64,000 nucleotides of DNA, taken from Sideroxydans sp. (lineage in GTDB: Bacteria > Pseudomonadota > Gammaproteobacteria > Burkholderiales > Gallionellaceae). The translations under genes were made by a program, and so were the position numbers. The stretch covers positions 117,659 through 181,658 of the forward strand of contig VMTA01000018.1 in the NCBI GenBank assembly GCA_013791855.1, written 5' to 3'. The notes beneath the pieces are model-generated. The model worked only from the letters and a program-made list of their open reading frames with translations. It did no database searches and was not told where the DNA came from. Positions 4,432 through 14,100 of this stretch are shown in pieces. How positions within the stretch are numbered: position 1 is the stretch's first letter; each line of letters begins with the position of its first letter.

Positions 4432-4560
4432 GTTCCTTCAAGGACTGTTGAGGTTCCACTCGATGCGGCAGGAACGGGCTTTGAGCAGGAATCCGGCACC
4501 CAAAGTGAACAGCGGCCGCTGCTCGCGCAACGACCGCTGTGCTTTTGCGGGGAAATGTAC

Positions 4561-4827
4561 TTACTTTTTGGACTTCTTGTCTGCCATGGCCTTGAACTTG
4601 CCCGTTTCCTCGATATGGGTGTTCAGGGCTTTCATGTTCTTGCGCCATTCCTGCAGTTGTTCGTCTTCCACTTCAAGCTGGATGGCGAGCGCTTCTTCGC
4701 GGGTGAGTTTTTCCTTGTGCAGGCGTTTGGGTAATTTGCCGCTCATGCGTGAGAGCAGGCGTTCGGCTTCTTCTTCGCTGAGTGCGCGTGCTTTAGCTTC
4801 GTATTCCGGGCTGCTGATCTTTGCCAT
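4561..4827 (-). CDS. Small charged helical hypothetical protein (88 aa)
   Basis: AGGAGG RBS upstream (minus strand), host-like codon usage. Confidence 0.7.
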   Translation of the reverse strand: MAKISSPEYEAKARALSEEEAERLLSRMSGKLPKRLHKEKLTREEALAIQLEVEDEQLQEWRKNMKALNTHIEETGKFKAMADKKSKK

Positions 4828-4854
4828 TTGAGATTTCCTCCTGAGGGTTCTTTT

Positions 4855-5250
4855 TTATTTTGTCAGCAACACCAGACCCCACACCACGCAGACATTGAGC
4901 AGGCTCACCAGCACGGCAGAGCTGCCGATGTCTTTTGCGCGTTTGGCGAGGTCGTGGTTCTCCAGCGATATGCGATCCACGGTGGCTTCGATGGCGGAGT
5001 TGATGAGTTCGACGATGATGACCAGCAGCACGCTGCCTATCATCAGTGCCTTGGCGATCATCGTCACCGGCAGCCAAAGCGCGAGCGGGACGAGCACGAT
5101 GGCTAGCCACACTTCCTGGCGGAAGGCGTCTTCATGTTTGTAGGCGGCGCGGAAACCTGCGATGGAGTAGCCGAAGGCGTTCCACAGGCGTACGAGACCG
5201 GTCTTTCCTTTGTGGGGACTTTGCAAAGTTTGCTCCTGAAGCGTTGTCAT
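4855..5250 (-). CDS. dgkA: Diacylglycerol kinase
   Basis: KTGLVRLWNAFGYSIAG...E.AFRQE...VELINSAIEATVDRIS...LAKRAKDIGSSAV; start ATG 5250. Confidence 0.95.
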   Translation of the reverse strand: MTTLQEQTLQSPHKGKTGLVRLWNAFGYSIAGFRAAYKHEDAFRQEVWLAIVLVPLALWLPVTMIAKALMIGSVLLVIIVELINSAIEATVDRISLENHDLAKRAKDIGSSAVLVSLLNVCVVWGLVLLTK

Positions 5251-5281
5251 ATTGGGCCCGATTGGGTTCGAAACTATACAC

Positions 5282-5312
5282 AAAAAAGAACGCGCACCAG
5301 ACAGCGTGCGCG
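5282..5312 (-). terminator. Intrinsic terminator after the olsB-like gene
   Basis: CGCGCAC/GTGCGCG stem followed by TTCTTTTTT on the minus strand. Confidence 0.65.
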
Positions 5313-5339
5313 CAAGGGAGGAGAGAACATGCAGCGTGC

Positions 5340-6101
5340 TTATGCCGCCTTTCTGAGGAAGTGCTTGGCATAGCGCGCGTTCATGCGCGACACCGGCATC
5401 AGGATCAACAGGTCGGCACAGTTGAAGTCGGGGTCCCATGCCGGTTCGCCGGCGATGTAGGCACCGAGGCGCAGATAACCTTTGATCAGCGGCGGGATGG
5501 TGACTTCCAGATCCTGTTGCAGCGATTCCAGCGGCAGGCGGCAGTGCGGGAACACGGTGTATTCGGACGGTGCGGCGTGCAGCTTGTGCACCTTGTTGTA
5601 CACGCTGGCGGCGTAGTGGCCGCCGTCGGCCATGCTGATGCTGGCGCAGCCGATCAGGTATTCGTGGTTGTGTTTGCCGATGTAGTCGGCCAGGCCGCTC
5701 CACAGCTGGGTGATGGTGGCGCCGTCGCGATAGTCGGGGTGCACGCAGGAGCGGCCCACTTCCACCATGCGGTCGCGCAGGTTCTGCAGACGCGACAGGT
5801 CGAACTCGGTCTCGGAGTAATAACCGCCGGCATTGACGGCCTGCTCGGGCGGCAGGATGCGGTAGGTGCCGACGACTTTGTCGTTGCCGTGGTCGCGCAC
5901 CAGCAGGTGGTCGCAATATTCGTCGAATCGGTCGATGTCCAGACCGAGTTCGGCGCTGGGCAGGTTGGCGCCCATCTCTTCGCCGAATACCTTGAAGCGG
6001 ATGCGCTGTGCTTCGGCGATCTCGGCCACCGAGCGTGCCATGTTGAAAGTGAGGCGGCGCGTAGTTTCCTGTTTCTGCTGCTGACGGATCAGATCCAACA
6101 T
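5340..6101 (-). CDS. olsB: GNAT-family ornithine N-acyltransferase, OlsB-like
   Basis: AQRIRFKVFGEEMGA...DIDRFDEYCDHLLV...VVGTYR...YYSETEFDL...VEVGRSCVHPDYR...YLIGCAS...PPLIKGYLRLGA. Confidence 0.8.
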   Translation of the reverse strand: MLDLIRQQQKQETTRRLTFNMARSVAEIAEAQRIRFKVFGEEMGANLPSAELGLDIDRFDEYCDHLLVRDHGNDKVVGTYRILPPEQAVNAGGYYSETEFDLSRLQNLRDRMVEVGRSCVHPDYRDGATITQLWSGLADYIGKHNHEYLIGCASISMADGGHYAASVYNKVHKLHAAPSEYTVFPHCRLPLESLQQDLEVTIPPLIKGYLRLGAYIAGEPAWDPDFNCADLLILMPVSRMNARYAKHFLRKAA

Positions 6102-6111
6102 CGTCTTGCTC

Positions 6112-6918
6112 CTAAGTTGTCGATGGGAGCAGATTAGTGTCTGAATGTTGCGTGTCGGTTAACGCAATATGAAGCTTGTGTGACTCGGCTTGTTGCAGCG
6201 CGGCACTGATCGATTCATGCGCACGCCGGGCCAGTTCGCGGCGCTCGAAATCGGCAGCGTGCAGCGTGGGAGTGGGTATCAAGCGCACATGCAGCCTGGG
6301 TGTGTTGAGCAGCGTCCACATCGAAGCGCCGAAGGAGATGTTGTCGAAGTAGGCGGCGGCGGTGCTGCGTGCACCGCTTTCGTCCTGATAGCGGATGGCG
6401 ATGGGATGCAGCGCTACGCTTGCGTCGATGGCCGGTTGCAATAGAAAGGCGTGGAAGTGCGCGACCTGTGCCCCGTCGGTGCTGGTGCCTTCCGGGAAGA
6501 CGGCGAGGCATTCGCCTTGCTGCATCAAGTCGCCCAGTTGTTTATTGATACGGGCAGCGGCGCGTGCGTTGCCGCGCTCGATGAACAGCGTGTTGGCGCG
6601 CGCGCACAGCCAGCCGATGGCCGGCCAGCGCCGCACTTCGGATTTGGCGACGAAGCGCATCGGTACCACACTGTTCAATACGAACACGTCCAGCCAGGAG
6701 ATGTGGTTGCTGACGATGAGGCCGTTGCGCAATGCGCCCAGATCTACGGCTTGCAGCTTGACGTTGAAGATGTTGAGCAGATCGGCAGACCAGTTCTGCA
6801 GGATGGTGCGGCGCATGCCTGCAGGAAGTCGTGGATAGATCAAGGCCATGAGCAGGCCGTAGGCTATGTGCAACGCGAGGCGGAGCGCCCGGAACAGGGC
6901 GATGGATCTTTGCAGCAT
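6112..6918 (-). CDS. Lysophospholipid/lyso-ornithine lipid acyltransferase (PlsC/OlsA family)
   Basis: NHISWLD (HX4D), FVAKSEV, FIERG, VFPEGTS motifs; adjacent to the olsB-like gene. Confidence 0.85.
   Translation of the reverse strand: MLQRSIALFRALRLALHIAYGLLMALIYPRLPAGMRRTILQNWSADLLNIFNVKLQAVDLGALRNGLIVSNHISWLDVFVLNSVVPMRFVAKSEVRRWPAIGWLCARANTLFIERGNARAAARINKQLGDLMQQGECLAVFPEGTSTDGAQVAHFHAFLLQPAIDASVALHPIAIRYQDESGARSTAAAYFDNISFGASMWTLLNTPRLHVRLIPTPTLHAADFERRELARRAHESISAALQQAESHKLHIALTDTQHSDTNLLPSTT
6131..6184 (-). promoter_or_regulatory. PhoB-box-like array of four 11-bp-phased half sites plus a -10 box, upstream of olsB
   Basis: Minus strand GTCAC-N6-TTCAT-N6-TTAAC-N6-GCAAC-N10-TAATCT. 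Confidence 0.6.
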
Positions 6919-6924
6919 GCGTGC

Positions 6925-7059
6925 TCAGTCCAGCGAGAAGATGCACAGGGTGCAGAAGAAGGTGAGCGTGGCGTTGAAGCCTTTGGACATCAGCAGGCCG
7001 GGGATGCTGATGCGGCCATCTGCATGGTGGATGGATGCCTGGCGAGTGCTTCGCTTCAT
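6925..7059 (-). CDS. 44-aa microprotein MKRSTRQASIHHADGRISIPGLLMSKGFNATLTFFCTLCIFSLD
   Basis: AAGGA RBS, ATGA overlap with the upstream stop, ends 7 nt before the acyltransferase ATG. Confidence 0.55.
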   Translation of the reverse strand: MKRSTRQASIHHADGRISIPGLLMSKGFNATLTFFCTLCIFSLD

Positions 7060-8945
7060 ATCGTTTCCTTTGCGTAGGATGGATCGTAGTCGCGCTGTTC
7101 TACAAAGAGGCTGTTGCCCGGAATCTTCTTCGCCATCTTCTTGGCATCGGTCATGGCGGCGGAGACTTCGTGGTGTGACGAGAATTGGCCGGCCTCTATC
7201 CTGATCGCGCCGATGGACAGGCTGCTGAGGGGGTGGAACTTCACCGTGCCGTCGCGCCCTTCGCTGGTGTAACCGCCGGCGGCGATATGTTCTTCGCGGA
7301 ACATCAGCGAGGCGGCCTGCTCGAACGAGCGCAACGCTTGTTCGCAGCGTGATTGCCAGTCGCGGCTTTGCATCAGCAGGATGAAATCGTCTCCGCCGAT
7401 GTGGCCGAGGAAGTCGAGCTTGGGGTCGCATGTCCAGCTCAGCACGCGGCCGGTGAGCTGGATCATCTCGTCGCCCTTGCGGTAGCCGTAGGTGTCGTTG
7501 AATGGTTTGAAGTGATCAAGGTCGCAATAGCAGGCGACGAACGGGGTGTTCGCCTGCAGCAGGCGGCCGATGTGTTCGTTTATCGGCACGTTGCCGGGCA
7601 GCAGGGTGAGCGGGTTGGCATAGCGAGCGGCTTCCAACTGCATCTGCGTGAGCTCGCGCAACAGCGCCTGGCCCGAGGCGACGCCGATGTAGCGGCCGCG
7701 CTCGGTGATGATGAAGCCCTCGGCGAAATGGCGGTCTTCCGATTCGGCCAGGAAGTGGCTGAGCTCCTGCACCGGCATGTTCTTCTCCACCAGCAGCGGC
7801 GGATTCTGGATCAGTTCCATGCAAGATTTGCGACCGTGCAATTCGCGCTGGTAGGGTTTGGCGAAACGGTCGATGAAGCTGTAGCGGCTGATGAGCCCGA
7901 CCGGCGTGCCGTTGTTGACCACCGGGATGGCGCGCAGCGCAGGATCGGCGTTGAAGCGGTCGAATATGTTTTCGATCAGCGTGTTCGGGTGCACCGGCTC
8001 GATGTAGGTCAGCAGCTTTTGAGCCGTGGTCTGCGCGTTGGGCGGGCAGGCTGGGCACGAGGCATCCGGGAAGATGGAGATGCTCGAAGCGTTGAGGATG
8101 CGGCCGGTCTCGGTGGAGGCGAACAGCGGCGGCGTGGGGCTGGGGCGGGCGATGAAGTATCCCTGGCCGAGCGCGATGCCGAGTTCCTTCACCACTTTCA
8201 ATTCGGCCTCGGTCTCCACACCTTCGGCGATTACGTGTGTACCGCAGCTCTCGGCGATGCTCTGGATGGATTTGAGGAACTGCAATTTGATCGGGTCGCG
8301 GTCCACGCCCTGCACGAAATGCATGTCGATCTTGATGTATTCGGGGCGCAGTTCGGACCACAGGCGCAGGCTGGAGAACCCTTCGCCCAGATCGTCGATG
8401 GCGATCTTGAAGCCCATACCCCGGTAATGCAGCAGCGCGCTGCGCATGGCTTCGAAGTCGAAGGTGGGCTGGTTCTCGGTGATCTCGATCACCACGCGCG
8501 ACGGGTCGATATCCAGTTGCTCCAGAAAGGCCAGCGTCTGGCCGTTGCGGAAGCTGGGCTGGGTCAGCGTCTGCGGACTGACGTTGAGGAACAACTGGCC
8601 GGGCAGGTCTAGTCGGGCGAAAGCTTCGAGTACGGTGTGACGCGCGAGCATCTCGACTTCCAGCGCCAGGCCTTCGCGTTCGGCGGTCGCGAACAGATTG
8701 ACCGGCGAGTGTAATGGGCTGTTGGCGGGACCGCGGATCAAGCCTTCATAGCCGAGGAATTCGCCGCGCTTGAGGTCGATGATGGGCTGGAACAATGCGC
8801 TCAGGCTGCGTTCGGCAAGTATCTCTTCCAGCGGTGTCATGACTTGTTCCTTGTGTTCTTCGGCCTGCAGCAGGTTGGCCATGAATTGCGCGCGCGGCGC
8901 GCGCGCATAAGCGTGTTGCTGGGCAGGCGGCAGGACGGTGAACAT
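7056..8945 (-). CDS. EAL-CBS-CBS-GGDEF c-di-GMP turnover protein
   Basis: FQPI...YEGLIRGP, LFLNVSP, IEITE, DDLGEGFSSL, IKID, AEGVET; CBS pair; DLDHFKPFNDTYG...GDE...GHIGGDDF. Confidence 0.9.
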   Translation of the reverse strand: MFTVLPPAQQHAYARAPRAQFMANLLQAEEHKEQVMTPLEEILAERSLSALFQPIIDLKRGEFLGYEGLIRGPANSPLHSPVNLFATAEREGLALEVEMLARHTVLEAFARLDLPGQLFLNVSPQTLTQPSFRNGQTLAFLEQLDIDPSRVVIEITENQPTFDFEAMRSALLHYRGMGFKIAIDDLGEGFSSLRLWSELRPEYIKIDMHFVQGVDRDPIKLQFLKSIQSIAESCGTHVIAEGVETEAELKVVKELGIALGQGYFIARPSPTPPLFASTETGRILNASSISIFPDASCPACPPNAQTTAQKLLTYIEPVHPNTLIENIFDRFNADPALRAIPVVNNGTPVGLISRYSFIDRFAKPYQRELHGRKSCMELIQNPPLLVEKNMPVQELSHFLAESEDRHFAEGFIITERGRYIGVASGQALLRELTQMQLEAARYANPLTLLPGNVPINEHIGRLLQANTPFVACYCDLDHFKPFNDTYGYRKGDEMIQLTGRVLSWTCDPKLDFLGHIGGDDFILLMQSRDWQSRCEQALRSFEQAASLMFREEHIAAGGYTSEGRDGTVKFHPLSSLSIGAIRIEAGQFSSHHEVSAAMTDAKKMAKKIPGNSLFVEQRDYDPSYAKETI

Positions 8946-8977
8946 GGCGCACCTCTAATCTCTGGTTTCGGGCGCGC

Positions 8978-9009
8978 AGGTTAGCGCCGCAGTGTTACGG
9001 GCAGATGAC
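8978..9009 (-). promoter_or_regulatory. PhoB-box-like promoter upstream of the EAL-GGDEF operon
   Basis: Minus strand GTCAT-N6-GTAAC-N10-TAACCT, then AGAGGT RBS before ATG 8945. Confidence 0.45.
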
Positions 9010-9082
9010 GGCTTTCCCATCTGCGCAAGGCGGTTACAATGAGCCCCGTTTCGTCGTCGCCTACATTCCAGAGGGTTCGCGC

Positions 9083-11125
9083 ATGATCGTTCCGCAGTTG
9101 CTGCAAGACCTGTCCAAGCGTTTGAACAGCCGCGGTTTTTCCGTGCTGCTGTCGGCGCTATCCGTGTTGTTCGTGCTGACCCTGTATTACTCGCAGAACC
9201 CCTTTCTGGAGGCGTTCGAGGCACGCACCTACGATCTGCGCTTCCGTGAGATGCGCGGTGCCATCCCGCTGGAACCTTCCATCGCCATCATCGCCATCGA
9301 TGACAAGAGCATCGCCGAACTAGGACGCTACCCCTGGACGCGCAGCCAGTACGCGCGTTTGCTGGAGCGGCTGAAAGCGGCGCAGGCGAAGGCGGTGATG
9401 TTCGATGCCTTCTTCCCCGAGCGCGAGGATATGGTGAACGACCAGGCGTTCTCGGCGGCGATGCAGAAGTCGGGCAACGTCACACTGGCGCAACTGTTCG
9501 AGTACGGCCCGGACGGGCAGGTGAAAGGTGTCACGCGCTCGCTGCCGGAGTTCGAGCGGGCGGCGGTCTCATCAGGCCAGATCAATCTGTTCCCGGACGA
9601 GGACGGCGTGAACCGGCGCGTGCCGCTGTTGATCGAGGCGGACGGTAAATTGCATCCTTCGCTGGGCATGACGGCGGCGATGATCGCGCTGGGGGAAAAG
9701 GAATATTCGGCCGAAGCTTTCGATGTGGTGGTGGGCGAGCGCCATATCCCGGTAGACGAACAATATGCGATGTGGATCAACTACACCGGCCCGCCGGGCG
9801 GTTATCCGCGCTACTCCTTCACCGACGTGGTGCACGGGCGGGTGCCGGCCGAGGCGCTGAAGGGCAAGGTGCTGTTCATCGGTGCCACTGCGCTGGGGGT
9901 GTATGACATGCGCGTCACGCCTTTCCACGGCAATACGCCGGGGGTGGAGATCCACGCCACCGTGGCCGACAACATCATCAGCGACCGCTTCATCCGCCAG
10001 GGCGGGCTGGAGGCGCTGATGGACATGATGTTCATCGTGCTGCTGGGCACGCTGGCCTATTTCCTCACCACACGCCTGCGCCTGTACGGTGCTATCCCGG
10101 CCACGGTGCTGATGCTGTCCGCCTATATCTGGTTCGCCTATGACATGTTCGCGGCCGGGCACTGGATCAATATCATCTATCCGACCTTGTCGGCGATCCT
10201 GGCGCTGCTGACGGGCGGCAGCTTCCGCTATCTGGTGCTGGAGCGCAGTGCGCGCGAGATGCGTTCCATGTTCTCCAGCTATCTGTCACCCAAGCTGGTG
10301 GCGCGACTGGAGAAGGACCCCGACGCAGCCAAGATCGGCGGCGACACCAAGGATGTGACGGTGCTGTTCACCGACATCAAAGGCTTCACCTCCTTCAGCG
10401 AATCGCATCCGCCGCAAGTGGTGGTGGCGCGACTGAACGAATATCTGGGGGAGATGGTGAAGATCATCGAGCGGCACGATGGCACCATAGACAAGTTCAT
10501 CGGCGATGCGGTGATGGCTTACTGGGGTGCGCCGCTGGCGCAGCCCGACCATGCGCGGCTGGCGGTGGAATGTGTGGCGGCCATGGCGACGCGCATGGGG
10601 CAGTTGCGCAGCAAATGGGAGGCGGAAGGTGTGGTGCCGTTCTCGATACGCGGCGGCTTGCATTCCGGCGAGGTGGTGGCCGGCAATGTCGGTTTTGCGG
10701 GCAAGAAGATGGAGTACACCGTGATCGGTGATACGGTGAATCTGGCCTCGCGTCTGGAAGGCACTGCGAAATACTACGGCATCACCTATCTGGTGGGCGA
10801 ACAGACCCGTCAGCTGGCGCCGGATGTCTGTCCGTATCGGGAAATGGACAAGATTCGGGTGGTCGGCAAGCAATTACCCGTTACAATTTATGAGCCTCAG
10901 GTCGGCCCGGATGCTTTGAGCAGCGGCCAAATGGCACGCTTCCATGCGGGGCTGGCGCACTACAGGCAGCGTGATTGGGCTGCGGCGCAGTCCGAATTCG
11001 CGGCCGTACTGGAAGAAAGACCGGAAGACAGGCCAAGCCAGTTATACGTCGAACGTTGCACCTACTTTGCAGCCAATCCCCCGGCAGAAGACTGGGACGG
11101 CGTTTTCAACCGGGCAGAAAAATAA
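9083..11125 (+). CDS. CHASE2-domain class III adenylate cyclase
   Basis: IIAIDDKSIAELGRYPW.R CHASE2, TPGVEIHA, 3 TM helices, VTVLFTDIKGFT, IDKFIGDAVMA, EYTVIGDTVNLASRLEG; start ATG 9083 with GAGG RBS. Confidence 0.92.
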   Translation: MIVPQLLQDLSKRLNSRGFSVLLSALSVLFVLTLYYSQNPFLEAFEARTYDLRFREMRGAIPLEPSIAIIAIDDKSIAELGRYPWTRSQYARLLERLKAAQAKAVMFDAFFPEREDMVNDQAFSAAMQKSGNVTLAQLFEYGPDGQVKGVTRSLPEFERAAVSSGQINLFPDEDGVNRRVPLLIEADGKLHPSLGMTAAMIALGEKEYSAEAFDVVVGERHIPVDEQYAMWINYTGPPGGYPRYSFTDVVHGRVPAEALKGKVLFIGATALGVYDMRVTPFHGNTPGVEIHATVADNIISDRFIRQGGLEALMDMMFIVLLGTLAYFLTTRLRLYGAIPATVLMLSAYIWFAYDMFAAGHWINIIYPTLSAILALLTGGSFRYLVLERSAREMRSMFSSYLSPKLVARLEKDPDAAKIGGDTKDVTVLFTDIKGFTSFSESHPPQVVVARLNEYLGEMVKIIERHDGTIDKFIGDAVMAYWGAPLAQPDHARLAVECVAAMATRMGQLRSKWEAEGVVPFSIRGGLHSGEVVAGNVGFAGKKMEYTVIGDTVNLASRLEGTAKYYGITYLVGEQTRQLAPDVCPYREMDKIRVVGKQLPVTIYEPQVGPDALSSGQMARFHAGLAHYRQRDWAAAQSEFAAVLEERPEDRPSQLYVERCTYFAANPPAEDWDGVFNRAEK

Positions 11126-11177
11126 CGCGACCGTCAGTGTCGCGGATCACATCAACAGAATTTGGATAGGTGGATAC

Positions 11178-14100
11178 ATGCGTAACTTGCTGATTGCATC
11201 CCTGATAGGACTCATTTCCCTTAGCGCCCATGCGGGGCTGAACGGCAACGGACTTGCCAACGGCTTCATCAAGGCCGATTTCAAGCGCGAGATCGCTGCT
11301 GACAAGCTGGAAAAGTTGCTGGCAACCGGCGGCGGCCTGCTGTTCGTTGCGCGTAAAGGCGGTGAGGTCGTGGCGATGGATGCGGGCGGGAAAGTCGCCT
11401 TTACGCTAGCGGCCAAGTCCGGCGAAGTGGAGCTGCTGAAGCGCCCGGAAGGTGCCGCAGTCACCAAGGACACCTTGTATGTGGTGGATAGCGATACCGA
11501 CCAGGTAGTGATGTATACCTTGCCCGGCGGCAAGTACAAGGGGCGTTTTGGCGCTAAGGCGGGCGGCTTCTTCGGCGGTGACGATCAGGCGCTGGACGGC
11601 CCACGTGGTATCGCGGTGCACGAAGGCGTGGTCTATGTGGCGGACACCGGCAATAAACGCATCCAGATGTTCGGTGTGAACGGCGTGTTCATCCATACGC
11701 TGGACCTGCATGCGAAGGGTAAAGACGAGAGCGGCAGGGAATTGCCGTGGCCGTTGAAGAAGGCCGCGGATATCGCGCTGGATGAGGTTGGCCGCATCTA
11801 TGTGATGGATAGCGATGAGAGTCAGATCAAGGTCTACGACCCCAGCGGTCTGTATCTGAGCTCTTTCCAGGATGTCGGTTCGCCGGTCGCGCTGGCAGTG
11901 GCTGAAGACGGTGTCTACGTCGCGGATGGAAGTAAACAGGTGGTGTCCAAGTTCGACTTCGACGGCAAGCCGGCTTTTTCGTTCGGCTCCAAGGGCGAGG
12001 GGAAATCCCAGACCAAGCAACTCTCCGGCCTTGCGGTAGAAAAAGGTCAGCAGGTCTACATCGGCGATGCCGGCAAATCGTTGCTCAATCATTTCCAGAC
12101 CATCGCGGGTACGCGCATGGAGCCGGTGCCTAAGGCGGCCGGACGTTCTTCCGTCAAATGGCAGGGCAGCATCCCGGTCGAAGCGGTGCAGTTGGCCGGT
12201 GACGGCAAGGGGACGGTGTATGCCATCACCAAGCCGGGCAAGGATGGCAGTGCATTGCTCAAGCTCAAGGACGGCAAAGTGGCGGCTGAGATCAGGCCCG
12301 CCGATATGGAGTTGACCGCGGTCACTGTGGATGCGAGCGGCGGTCTCTGGGTGCTGGATAAAAAGAAGAAGCGCTGTGTGAAACTGGATGAGGCGGGCAA
12401 GGAACTGGCGACTTTCGGTAGCGGCGGCAGCGGCGCAGGACAGTTCAGCAATCCTGCTTCCGTGGCGGTCGCCAGCAGCGGTCTGGTGTTTGTGGCGGAT
12501 CGCGGCCATCGCTCGGTGCAGGTGTTCCGCGGCGACGGCGTGTATGTGGACAAGCTGGGCGGCAATATCAGCAATCCGTTGGCGATCGGTATAGACCCGC
12601 AGGACCGCTTGTTCGTGCTGGACGGCAGTCGCAGCAGCGTGCTGGTGTTCAAGCCCAGCGGCGAGTTGTCGCATGAATTCGCCAGACCCAAGGAAGGCAG
12701 TCTGTTCGCCAAGCCGCTGGATATGGCGGTCACCGCCGACGAAGTGCTGGTGCTGGACGGCAATCAGGTAAAGGCGTTCGATCACCAAGGCAAACTGTTG
12801 CGGGTGTTCGGTACCAAAGCGACCGGTACGGCCAATCTGGGCGATCCGGTGGCGCTGGCCAGCAGCGGCGGTAGCACGCTGTTCGTGGCGGATGGCGAAG
12901 GCAAGCGTGTCGAATCCCTGTCGGTGATGTACAAACCGCAGCAACCGGCCAATTTCACCGCACACGGACATGTGCATGCGGTGGACCTGAGCTGGGACAA
13001 GCCGGCGGCGTTCTACGTCAAGGCCTTCCACATCTATCGCTCCAAGAGCGAGAACGCCGGCTATGTGCAAGTCGGCACCAGCGAGACAAATGCCTATACC
13101 GATGCAGGGCTGGATGCGGATGTGCGCTACTTCTATCGCGTGGTGGCGGTCTCCGATTTCGGTTATGAGGGAGCGAGCAGCTCCGCTGCGAGCGCAACGA
13201 CAGAGAAATTCACACCACCCGCTTTGAGCGCGGTCACGGCCGAGATGACACCCTGGCAGGCGAACCTGAAATGGGAAGCTGTCGATCCGCAATACTTCGC
13301 GGCCTACCGCATCTATCAGCAGGAAGGCGATGCCATGCTGCAGGTGGGCGAGGTCACCATGCCGGAGTTCACCAAGGACGCCCTGCAGCCGGAAACCAAA
13401 TACACCTTCTATGTCAGCGTGCTGAGCACCGACCAGACCGAATCGGAAAAGCTGCCGGTGGAAGCGACGACGCTGGTGTTCAGCCGTCCGCCGCTGGATA
13501 TCGAAGTGGTCAAGCTGGAGAACGTGTTCTCGAACTCCTACAAGCTGTACGAGCGTGACGGTATCGGCACCATCCGCCTGACCAACAACACGGACAAGAA
13601 GATGGAGAAGATCCGGGTCAGCTTCCTGTTGAAGAACTTCATGGATTTCTCGACCGAGAACAAGATCCTCAAGTTGATGCCGGGATCGAGCGAGGAATTG
13701 CCGCTGAAGGCGGTGTTCAACAACAGCATCCTCACCATGACCGAAGACAGCTCGGTGCAGGCACTGATCGAGGCCAGCTACTTCGATAACGGCAAGAAGG
13801 TGACTTACAGCCATAACGCCACGGTCAACGTGTACGACAAACACCGCCTGACCTGGGACGAGCGCGGGCGCTTCGCCGCCTTCGTCACGCCGAAAGACCC
13901 GCCGGTGCTGAATCTGGCGCGCGGTATCGTGGGCGAGTACCGCGAGACCAAGGATGAGGCGCAACTGGCGGCGGCACTGTTCGACGCGCTGGGTCTGTTC
14001 GGTCTGACCTATATCCAGGATCCGAGTAATCCCTATCAGCTCACCTCGGGCAAGGAGCATACCGTCGACTACATCCAGTTCCCGCGCGAGACGCTGGAGC

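Follow-up and report, generated by a model that had tools for sequence, protein, structure and literature searches.

The 64,000-nucleotide stretch of a Sideroxydans sp. genome analysed here (assembly GCA_013791855.1, contig VMTA01000018.1, positions 117,659 to 181,658; hereafter the window) carries on its minus strand four tightly packed genes that, judged by promoter anatomy and comparison with relatives, probably form a single PhoB-activated phosphate-starvation operon. The first gene encodes a predicted phosphodiesterase of cyclic di-GMP (c-di-GMP), the second a 44-residue small protein, and the last two, olsA and olsB, putative enzymes of ornithine-lipid synthesis. An earlier sequence-only reading of this DNA had proposed a Pho-controlled unit joining a c-di-GMP enzyme to ornithine-lipid genes, and comparative evidence from the genome's own and congeneric pho promoters, RapA orthology and published precedents supports that proposal. 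The coordinates given in that reading (6112-9009) omit olsB (5340-6101) and the terminator (5290-5313). The elements of the unit, in the direction of transcription, are as follows.

8978-9011, minus strand: P1, the predicted PhoB-type promoter (half-sites CCGTCAT at 9011-9005 and CCGTAAC at 9000-8994; -10 box TAACCT at 8983-8978)
7056-8945, minus strand: RapA/PA3258-family EAL-CBS-CBS-GGDEF gene (629 amino acids, protein P0001; a predicted c-di-GMP phosphodiesterase by Pfam)
6925-7059, minus strand: open reading frame of the 44-amino-acid small protein, its ATG overlapping the upstream TGA (ATGA)
6112-6918, minus strand: olsA-like lyso-ornithine-lipid O-acyltransferase gene (268 amino acids; PlsC family; NHISWLD motif)
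6131-6184, minus strand: P2, a second Pho-like array inside the olsA 3' end, ~30 nt before the olsB ATG
5340-6101, minus strand: olsB, ornithine N-acyltransferase gene (253 amino acids; GNAT, Acetyltransf_5)
5280-5313, minus strand: intrinsic terminator, an 8-bp G+C-rich stem followed by TTCTTTTTTGT, with the hairpin placed at 5290-5313

Read on the minus strand, P1 consists of GTCAT (9009-9005), GTAAC (8998-8994) and, exactly 10 nt further on, TAACCT (8983-8978), the motif GTCAT-N6-GTAAC-N10-TAACCT being present at 8978-9009 exactly as the sequence-only reading had described it. The two half-sites lie 11 bp apart (CCGTCAT-N4-CCGTAAC), so that at least two TGTCA-like direct half-sites with 11-bp periodicity are present, and downstream of them follow a ribosome-binding site (AGAGG, 8956-8952) and the ATG of the RapA-type gene at 8945. 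The box occupies the place of the -35 element, 10 nt before the -10 hexamer, with a spacing identical to that at the genome's own phoB, pstS and phoU promoters; the same spacing is found in 49 congener promoters. In this P1 resembles the classical Pho promoters (the Escherichia coli pstS/phoB type and the genome's own phoB, pstS and phoU), in which CTGTCAT-related 7-mers 11 bp apart replace the -35 element and the -10 box follows exactly 10 nt on. It differs from them in its hybrid half-sites (GTCAT as in phoB, GTAACA as in pstS), its G+C-rich spacers and a lower position weight matrix (PWM) score. Alignment of the upstream regions of 16 congener genomes showed that the block cCGTCAT-N6-GTAACA-N9-TAnnnT is kept in all 16, within surroundings that are otherwise unalignable. 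The gene upstream differs in 12 of these 16 genomes, and the block is kept regardless.

Genome-wide searches showed that the full geometry, apart from P1 itself, is restricted to pho genes. The composite pattern GT[CA]A[TC]-N6-GT[CA]A[TC]-N10-TAnnnT, a loosened form of the P1 motif, has five matches in the 2.55-Mb genome, compared with 0, 0, 0, 0, 1 and 0 in six simulated first-order Markov genomes of the same size. Besides P1, the pattern is matched by the promoters of phoB, of phoU and of pstSCAB, and where phnL ends, immediately ahead of phnM. Among congeners, the pattern stands upstream of pstS in 23/24 and of phoB in 26/26, and the phoB promoter of the present genome has the same sequence as that of a complete PhoB gene in one congener. 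The repeat GT[CA]A[TC]-N6-GT[CA]A[TC] alone is not enriched in the genome (32 observed vs. ~43 simulated), indicating that its geometry with the -10 box is the informative part. A PWM trained solely on congener pstS and phoB promoters, with the 8978-9011 site left out of the training, ranks P1 22nd of the 5.1 million positions scanned; the higher ranks include phoB, pstS, a methyl-accepting chemotaxis protein (MCP) gene beside phn, ppk and phoU. The score of P1 is moderate (9.3 bits vs. 45-47 for phoB and pstS). Taking conservation together with the genome, genus and PWM tests, P1 is best read as a PhoB-type promoter.

The four genes downstream of P1 are joined by a 4-nt overlap (RapA-type and small genes), a 6-nt gap (small gene and olsA) and a 10-nt gap (olsA and olsB), in agreement with the earlier description of gaps of 10 nt or less. 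A terminator inside the four-gene unit was looked for, and none was seen in the window's genome. The terminator after olsB has a fold energy of -15.3 kcal/mol. An equivalent hairpin with a T-run follows olsB in 15 of 16 congeners, in which the stems differ and still pair; variants include GCGCGCAC/GTGCGCGT and ACGCGCAT/ATGCGCGT. Because this conserved hairpin and T-run precede the next gene, dgkA, the unit ends after olsB, where the sequence-only reading had also ended it. The gene beyond is the following.

4855-5250, minus strand: dgkA, diacylglycerol kinase gene (Pfam DAGK_prokar, 1.1e-34), a conserved neighbour past the terminator

Given the strong, genus-conserved terminator between olsB and dgkA, dgkA was rejected as a fifth operon gene, and it probably has a transcript of its own.

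Sequence comparison shows that the EAL-CBS-GGDEF protein is an ortholog of Pseudomonas RapA/PA3258, and phosphodiesterase activity is predicted for it. Pfam searches of the protein gave matches to EAL (1.3e-50), GGDEF (4e-13) and CBS, and a relaxed scan gave two CBS stretches. The domains are arranged in the order EAL-CBS-CBS-GGDEF, with EAL at residues 43-268, the two CBS within 281-445 and GGDEF at 446-541. Orthology was judged against Pseudomonas proteins other than the Pf0-1 RapA sequence itself, which show 41-43% identity across residues 36-615. The reciprocal search with the Pseudomonas antarctica protein returned the window's protein with an E value of 6.6e-143, and the next of the genome's 23 EAL genes with 2.4e-27. 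At least 596 loci of the family were found in a scan of Beta- and Gammaproteobacteria with one genome per species. PA3258 of P. aeruginosa is an EAL-CBS-GGDEF protein homologous to RapA of P. fluorescens (a 2026 paper, PMC12900916), and the RapA phosphodiesterase, which depletes c-di-GMP, is produced when phosphate is low (PMC3032545). RapA of P. fluorescens Pf0-1 and PA3258 share with the Sideroxydans gene the EAL-CBS-GGDEF order and an upstream Pho-box repeat, and the Sideroxydans protein has its full-length reciprocal match among Pseudomonas proteins. A strict Pho-box repeat was found upstream of 28/76 RapA orthologs, nearly all those of Pseudomonas included, vs. 0/76 same-sized in-gene control regions; the orthologs with such boxes come from many genera of Beta- and Gammaproteobacteria. 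Thus, Pho control looks like an old trait of the RapA family, not one peculiar to this window.

Alignment of the protein across six families of the order (alignment A1) showed that E67, R71, N121, E154, E157, D184, D185, K205, E241 and Q261 are invariant; these residues correspond to the EAL catalytic set of the RocR and TBD1265 literature. In the same alignment, the GGDEF motif is invariantly GGDDF, an unusual form, and the RxxD site is lacking, consistent with an enzyme that degrades c-di-GMP and whose cyclase domain is regulatory or of weak activity. Since the motif is an invariant GGDDF, the net effect on c-di-GMP is probably degradation. Of the c-di-GMP turnover put forward in the sequence-only reading, the EAL-CBS-GGDEF enzyme stands, with breakdown as its probable net effect. 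The CBS pair may sense adenine nucleotides or energy charge, as the sequence-only reading proposed; for adenine nucleotides, this is a reasonable expectation from what is generally known of such domains. The setting of the gene differs from that in Pseudomonas in two respects. Pseudomonas RapA has no lipid genes downstream, whereas olsA and olsB follow in Sideroxydans; and its output there runs via LapD/LapG/LapA, whereas the LapG family (PF06035) gave no match in the Sideroxydans genome. Two further observations concern the gene itself. Among the 23 EAL-domain genes in the 2.55-Mb genome, the RapA-type gene alone has the strict pho-type promoter pattern. In two congeners it carries one in-frame stop (TAG in G014, loci L004/L023; TGA in G008, locus L020), possibly a mark of a pseudogene or a sequencing error.

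The two lipid genes were assigned by family. The olsA-like protein matches Pfam Acyltransferase (7.5e-23), and its top NCBIfam models are two OlsA equivalogs at 134 and 113 bits, below the cut-offs of 300. The olsB protein matches PF13444 (Acetyltransf_5, 5.5e-39), and its top models are OlsB equivalogs at 190 and 184 bits, below the cut-offs of 320 and 350. These models were built on Brucella and Rhodobacter clades, and because both proteins fall below such clade-specific cut-offs, ornithine is the presumed head group of the product. olsB is the sole strong copy in the genome, and the closely set olsA-olsB pair is kept in all Sideroxydans-type loci. PhoB/PhoR control of ornithine-lipid formation is known from Sinorhizobium meliloti, Vibrio cholerae and Acinetobacter baumannii, and a Pho box precedes olsB in Acinetobacter (PMC12971839, PMC11419095). 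The PhoB-controlled olsBA genes of S. meliloti, P. aeruginosa and A. baumannii resemble the present pair in combining a GNAT N-acyltransferase with a PlsC-type O-acyltransferase, and in their setting, the replacement of phospholipid under phosphate limitation (PMC11419095, PMC12971839). In contrast with olsBA, the Sideroxydans order is olsA then olsB, behind phosphodiesterase and small-protein genes and with two Pho-like elements; the proteins lie below the NCBIfam cut-offs, and the lipid is a predicted product. A proteome paper on P. aeruginosa at low phosphate mentions neither PA3258 nor Ols.

Several points weigh against the operon as read here. The composite pattern was shaped partly from P1 itself and partly from the E. 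coli consensus; because of this, and because the bare repeat is unenriched, the identity of the other matches outweighs their count. The independent PWM rank of P1 is good and not top, and the phn match sits within a coding region. The phoB gene of this genome is truncated by the end of contig C5 after 13 codons, so that only the promoter and these codons are assembled; congeners encode a full PhoB that scores above the NCBIfam cut-off. In four related genomes (L030, L032, L047 and L048), inserts with terminator-like hairpins stand between the small gene and olsA, so that co-transcription does not hold throughout the genus. These inserts measure 67-113 nt, contain long inverted repeats and a hairpin plus T-run, and look like repetitive extragenic palindromic elements; the window's genome is without them. 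Given the conserved P2, olsB need not depend on P1. With LapG unmatched, the output of the phosphodiesterase may differ from the Pseudomonas model. The subthreshold scores of OlsA and OlsB count here too; the head group could be an amino acid other than ornithine, and a literature search found no paper tying Sideroxydans to ornithine lipids.

The P2 array reads GTCAC-N6-TTCAT-N6-TTAAC-N6-GCAAC-N10-TAATCT, with four half-sites at 11-bp spacing. It is conserved in 21/21 loci aligned, in five of which olsA stops upstream and the array is intergenic; its conservation there as well marks it as a cis element rather than a side effect of coding. The PWM trained on pstS and phoB gives P2 a negative score, and most of its half-sites are without the GT seen in local Pho boxes. 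TTCAT and TTCAC half-sites are nonetheless present in the promoters of ppk and of the MCP gene beside phn. P2 is a probable internal promoter for olsB and possibly a weak PhoB site; given its PWM score, it was ranked as conserved and Pho-like in geometry, with PhoB no more than a candidate regulator. A separate candidate at this place, a hairpin masking the olsB ribosome-binding site (GCTCC...GGAGC), was rejected: RNAalifold gave no consensus structure, and pair counts were no better than those of shuffles.

The presence of P2 leads to the explanation that survives best beside a single operon. P1 would drive mainly the RapA-type and small genes, and the lipid genes, olsB above all, would be expressed from P2 or other promoters, as members of a shared regulon rather than parts of one mRNA. 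The conservation of P2 at every aligned locus, even where it is intergenic, points in this direction, as do the terminator-like inserts of the four related genomes. So does A. baumannii, in which only olsB has a Pho box and a phosphate response (PMC11419095). However, the junctions in the window's genome are an overlap or gaps of a few nucleotides free of a terminator, the score of P2 under the local Pho PWM is negative, and olsA would be left without a promoter of its own. We consider split control unlikely and retain the PhoB-activated four-gene operon as the preferred reading.

The repeat in P1 could also be the site of a different regulator of the OmpR/PhoB family, answering to another envelope or nutrient stress. 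Direct repeats spaced by 10-11 bp are common in that family as a whole. The genome encodes at least five PhoB-like response regulators (143-197 bits against the PhoB model), and the regulator at contig C37 has a TGTCA repeat of its own upstream. However, the half-sites and geometry of P1 recur at phoB, pstS and phoU and, by the strict pattern, nowhere else, and the Pseudomonas RapA orthologs, for which Pho control is published, carry the same type of box. A regulator other than PhoB is thus quite improbable.

The distribution of the gene order was examined in a linkage survey of 80 retrieved RapA-type loci. Among these loci, close linkage of olsA/olsB to the RapA-type gene was confined to Gallionellaceae, namely the Sideroxydans-type genus, a Gallionella metagenome-assembled genome and Ferrigenium (olsA). 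All 15 congeners of the first set retrieved show this order, as do L047, L048, L134 (Sideroxydans lithotrophicus ES-1) and L135 and, from a second Gallionellaceae genus, L131; this bears out the conservation of the operon. Five RapA orthologs from other families of the order are unlinked to olsA/olsB. A chance gene order with no regulatory meaning, in which the motif would serve only the divergent or upstream neighbour, is scarcely credible: RapA orthologs in those five families and in ~70 other genera do not stand beside olsAB, but the order is kept genus-wide and in three further Gallionellaceae genera, and the motif stays at a constant distance from the RapA-type gene, and in the same orientation to it, even as the neighbour upstream varies. 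At L132, which has no RapA gene, the small gene, olsA and olsB come immediately after a Pho box, indicating that the lipid genes are Pho-linked in their own right. In comparative terms, the predicted operon joins two known phosphate-starvation modules in a way specific to this lineage. In two congeners (G012, contig C10; G001, contig C127), no more than ~3 kb separates the operon from the main pstS ortholog, suggesting local clustering of Pho genes.

The small open reading frame is intact in all 18 Sideroxydans-type loci examined, at the same place and with 36-65 codons. Its product has a variable basic N terminus and a conserved core, LLxxxGFxxTLxxxCTxxVFS. The ratio of nonsynonymous to synonymous substitution rates is ~0.31 for this core, which was picked by its motif, and the final serine alternates between TCN and AGC codons. 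A profile search found the protein, as one copy, in 30/31 genomes of the genus, 4/17 of a second genus and 2/31 of a third. The homologs of the second genus stand alone. Two lone homologs in another Gallionellaceae genus (L130, 4989-5123; L133, 4957-5091) have no ols or rapA gene nearby and share an AT-rich upstream block with repeated TTTCAC. Searches of Pfam, NCBIfam and Protein Atlas with the small protein gave no usable match. A large protein collection holds 166 clusters of it, all unnamed and without a Pfam match, with entries from S. lithotrophicus and Sideroxyarcus emersonii among them. By these comparisons, the small protein is a real, selected and unnamed Gallionellaceae family. The Gallionella and Ferrigenium loci are without the small gene, olsA following directly after the RapA-type gene. 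At L132, the small gene accompanies olsA-olsB even though rapA is absent. AlphaFold2 predicted a single helix at residues 19-43 with modest confidence (predicted local distance difference test score of 64). The gene company suggests that the protein is a membrane-associated helper of the lipid enzymes.

When the elements are placed together, scarce phosphate would cause phosphorylated PhoB to bind the two 11-bp-spaced half-sites at 8994-9011, in place of a -35 box, and the bound PhoB would recruit RNA polymerase to the TAACCT -10 box. One transcript, ended by the hairpin at 5290-5313, would then carry the code for four products. The RapA-type EAL-CBS-GGDEF phosphodiesterase would lower c-di-GMP; the second product would be the 44-residue helical protein; and OlsA and OlsB would make a phosphorus-free ornithine lipid that replaces phospholipid. 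P2 would probably give olsB, the committing enzyme, an additional promoter of its own. The coupling of c-di-GMP turnover to lipid synthesis claimed in the sequence-only reading holds in the sense of predicted shared regulation; a mechanistic link between the two goes beyond the evidence.

The lowering of c-di-GMP by RapA and the use of phosphorus-sparing ornithine lipids are each textbook responses, previously studied apart and in other bacteria. New here is their presence in a single predicted PhoB-controlled unit, and nothing known is overturned. Neutrophilic iron oxidisers provide a context for such a joint unit, in that their own Fe(III) oxide products bind phosphate. In P. fluorescens, RapA activity frees cells from surfaces. 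As a tentative extension, the 44-residue helical protein may be a new participant in the making of aminolipid, perhaps by anchoring OlsA/OlsB in the membrane or by regulating them, and the fusion with the RapA-type gene may allow a single phosphate signal both to free cells from Fe(III) oxide crusts that scavenge phosphate and to exchange phospholipid for aminolipid. The prediction can be tested in the culturable S. lithotrophicus ES-1, and it gives the unnamed small-protein family a functional context.

On the other side of P1 lies a divergent gene outside the operon.

9083-11125, plus strand: CHASE2-adenylate/guanylate cyclase gene (Pfam)

This gene adjoins the unit only in the four closest genomes (L021-L023 and that of the window). 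The start given by the open-reading-frame finder, an ATG at 9005, is the reverse complement of the GTCAT of the Pho box. Since that ATG overlaps the Pho box, and alignment conservation points the same way, the start at 9083 is the likelier one, suggesting that the true cyclase start is the ATG at 9083. A search of 4500-9500 for known RNA elements found none; the sole match, to the Rfam small RNA BjrC68 (4503-4566, minus strand), lies outside the operon and below threshold (23.3 bits vs. a gathering score of 39; E value 0.008) and is probably due to chance.

From the promoters described here, a preliminary outline of the genus's Pho regulon emerges, comprising phoB, pstSCAB, phoU, phn, ppk, the MCP gene and the rapA-olsAB operon. 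The ppk gene (contig C14, ~9237-11659, L193) has a Pho-type promoter, TTCAT-N6-GTAAC-N10-TAATAT, 44 nt upstream, which ranks 6th by PWM. The third-best PWM match precedes a HAMP-domain MCP gene beside phnKLMNP (contig C38, 109482-111163; L042, 5483-7164), ~6.5 kb before the window, and the product of this gene could be a phosphate-regulated chemoreceptor.

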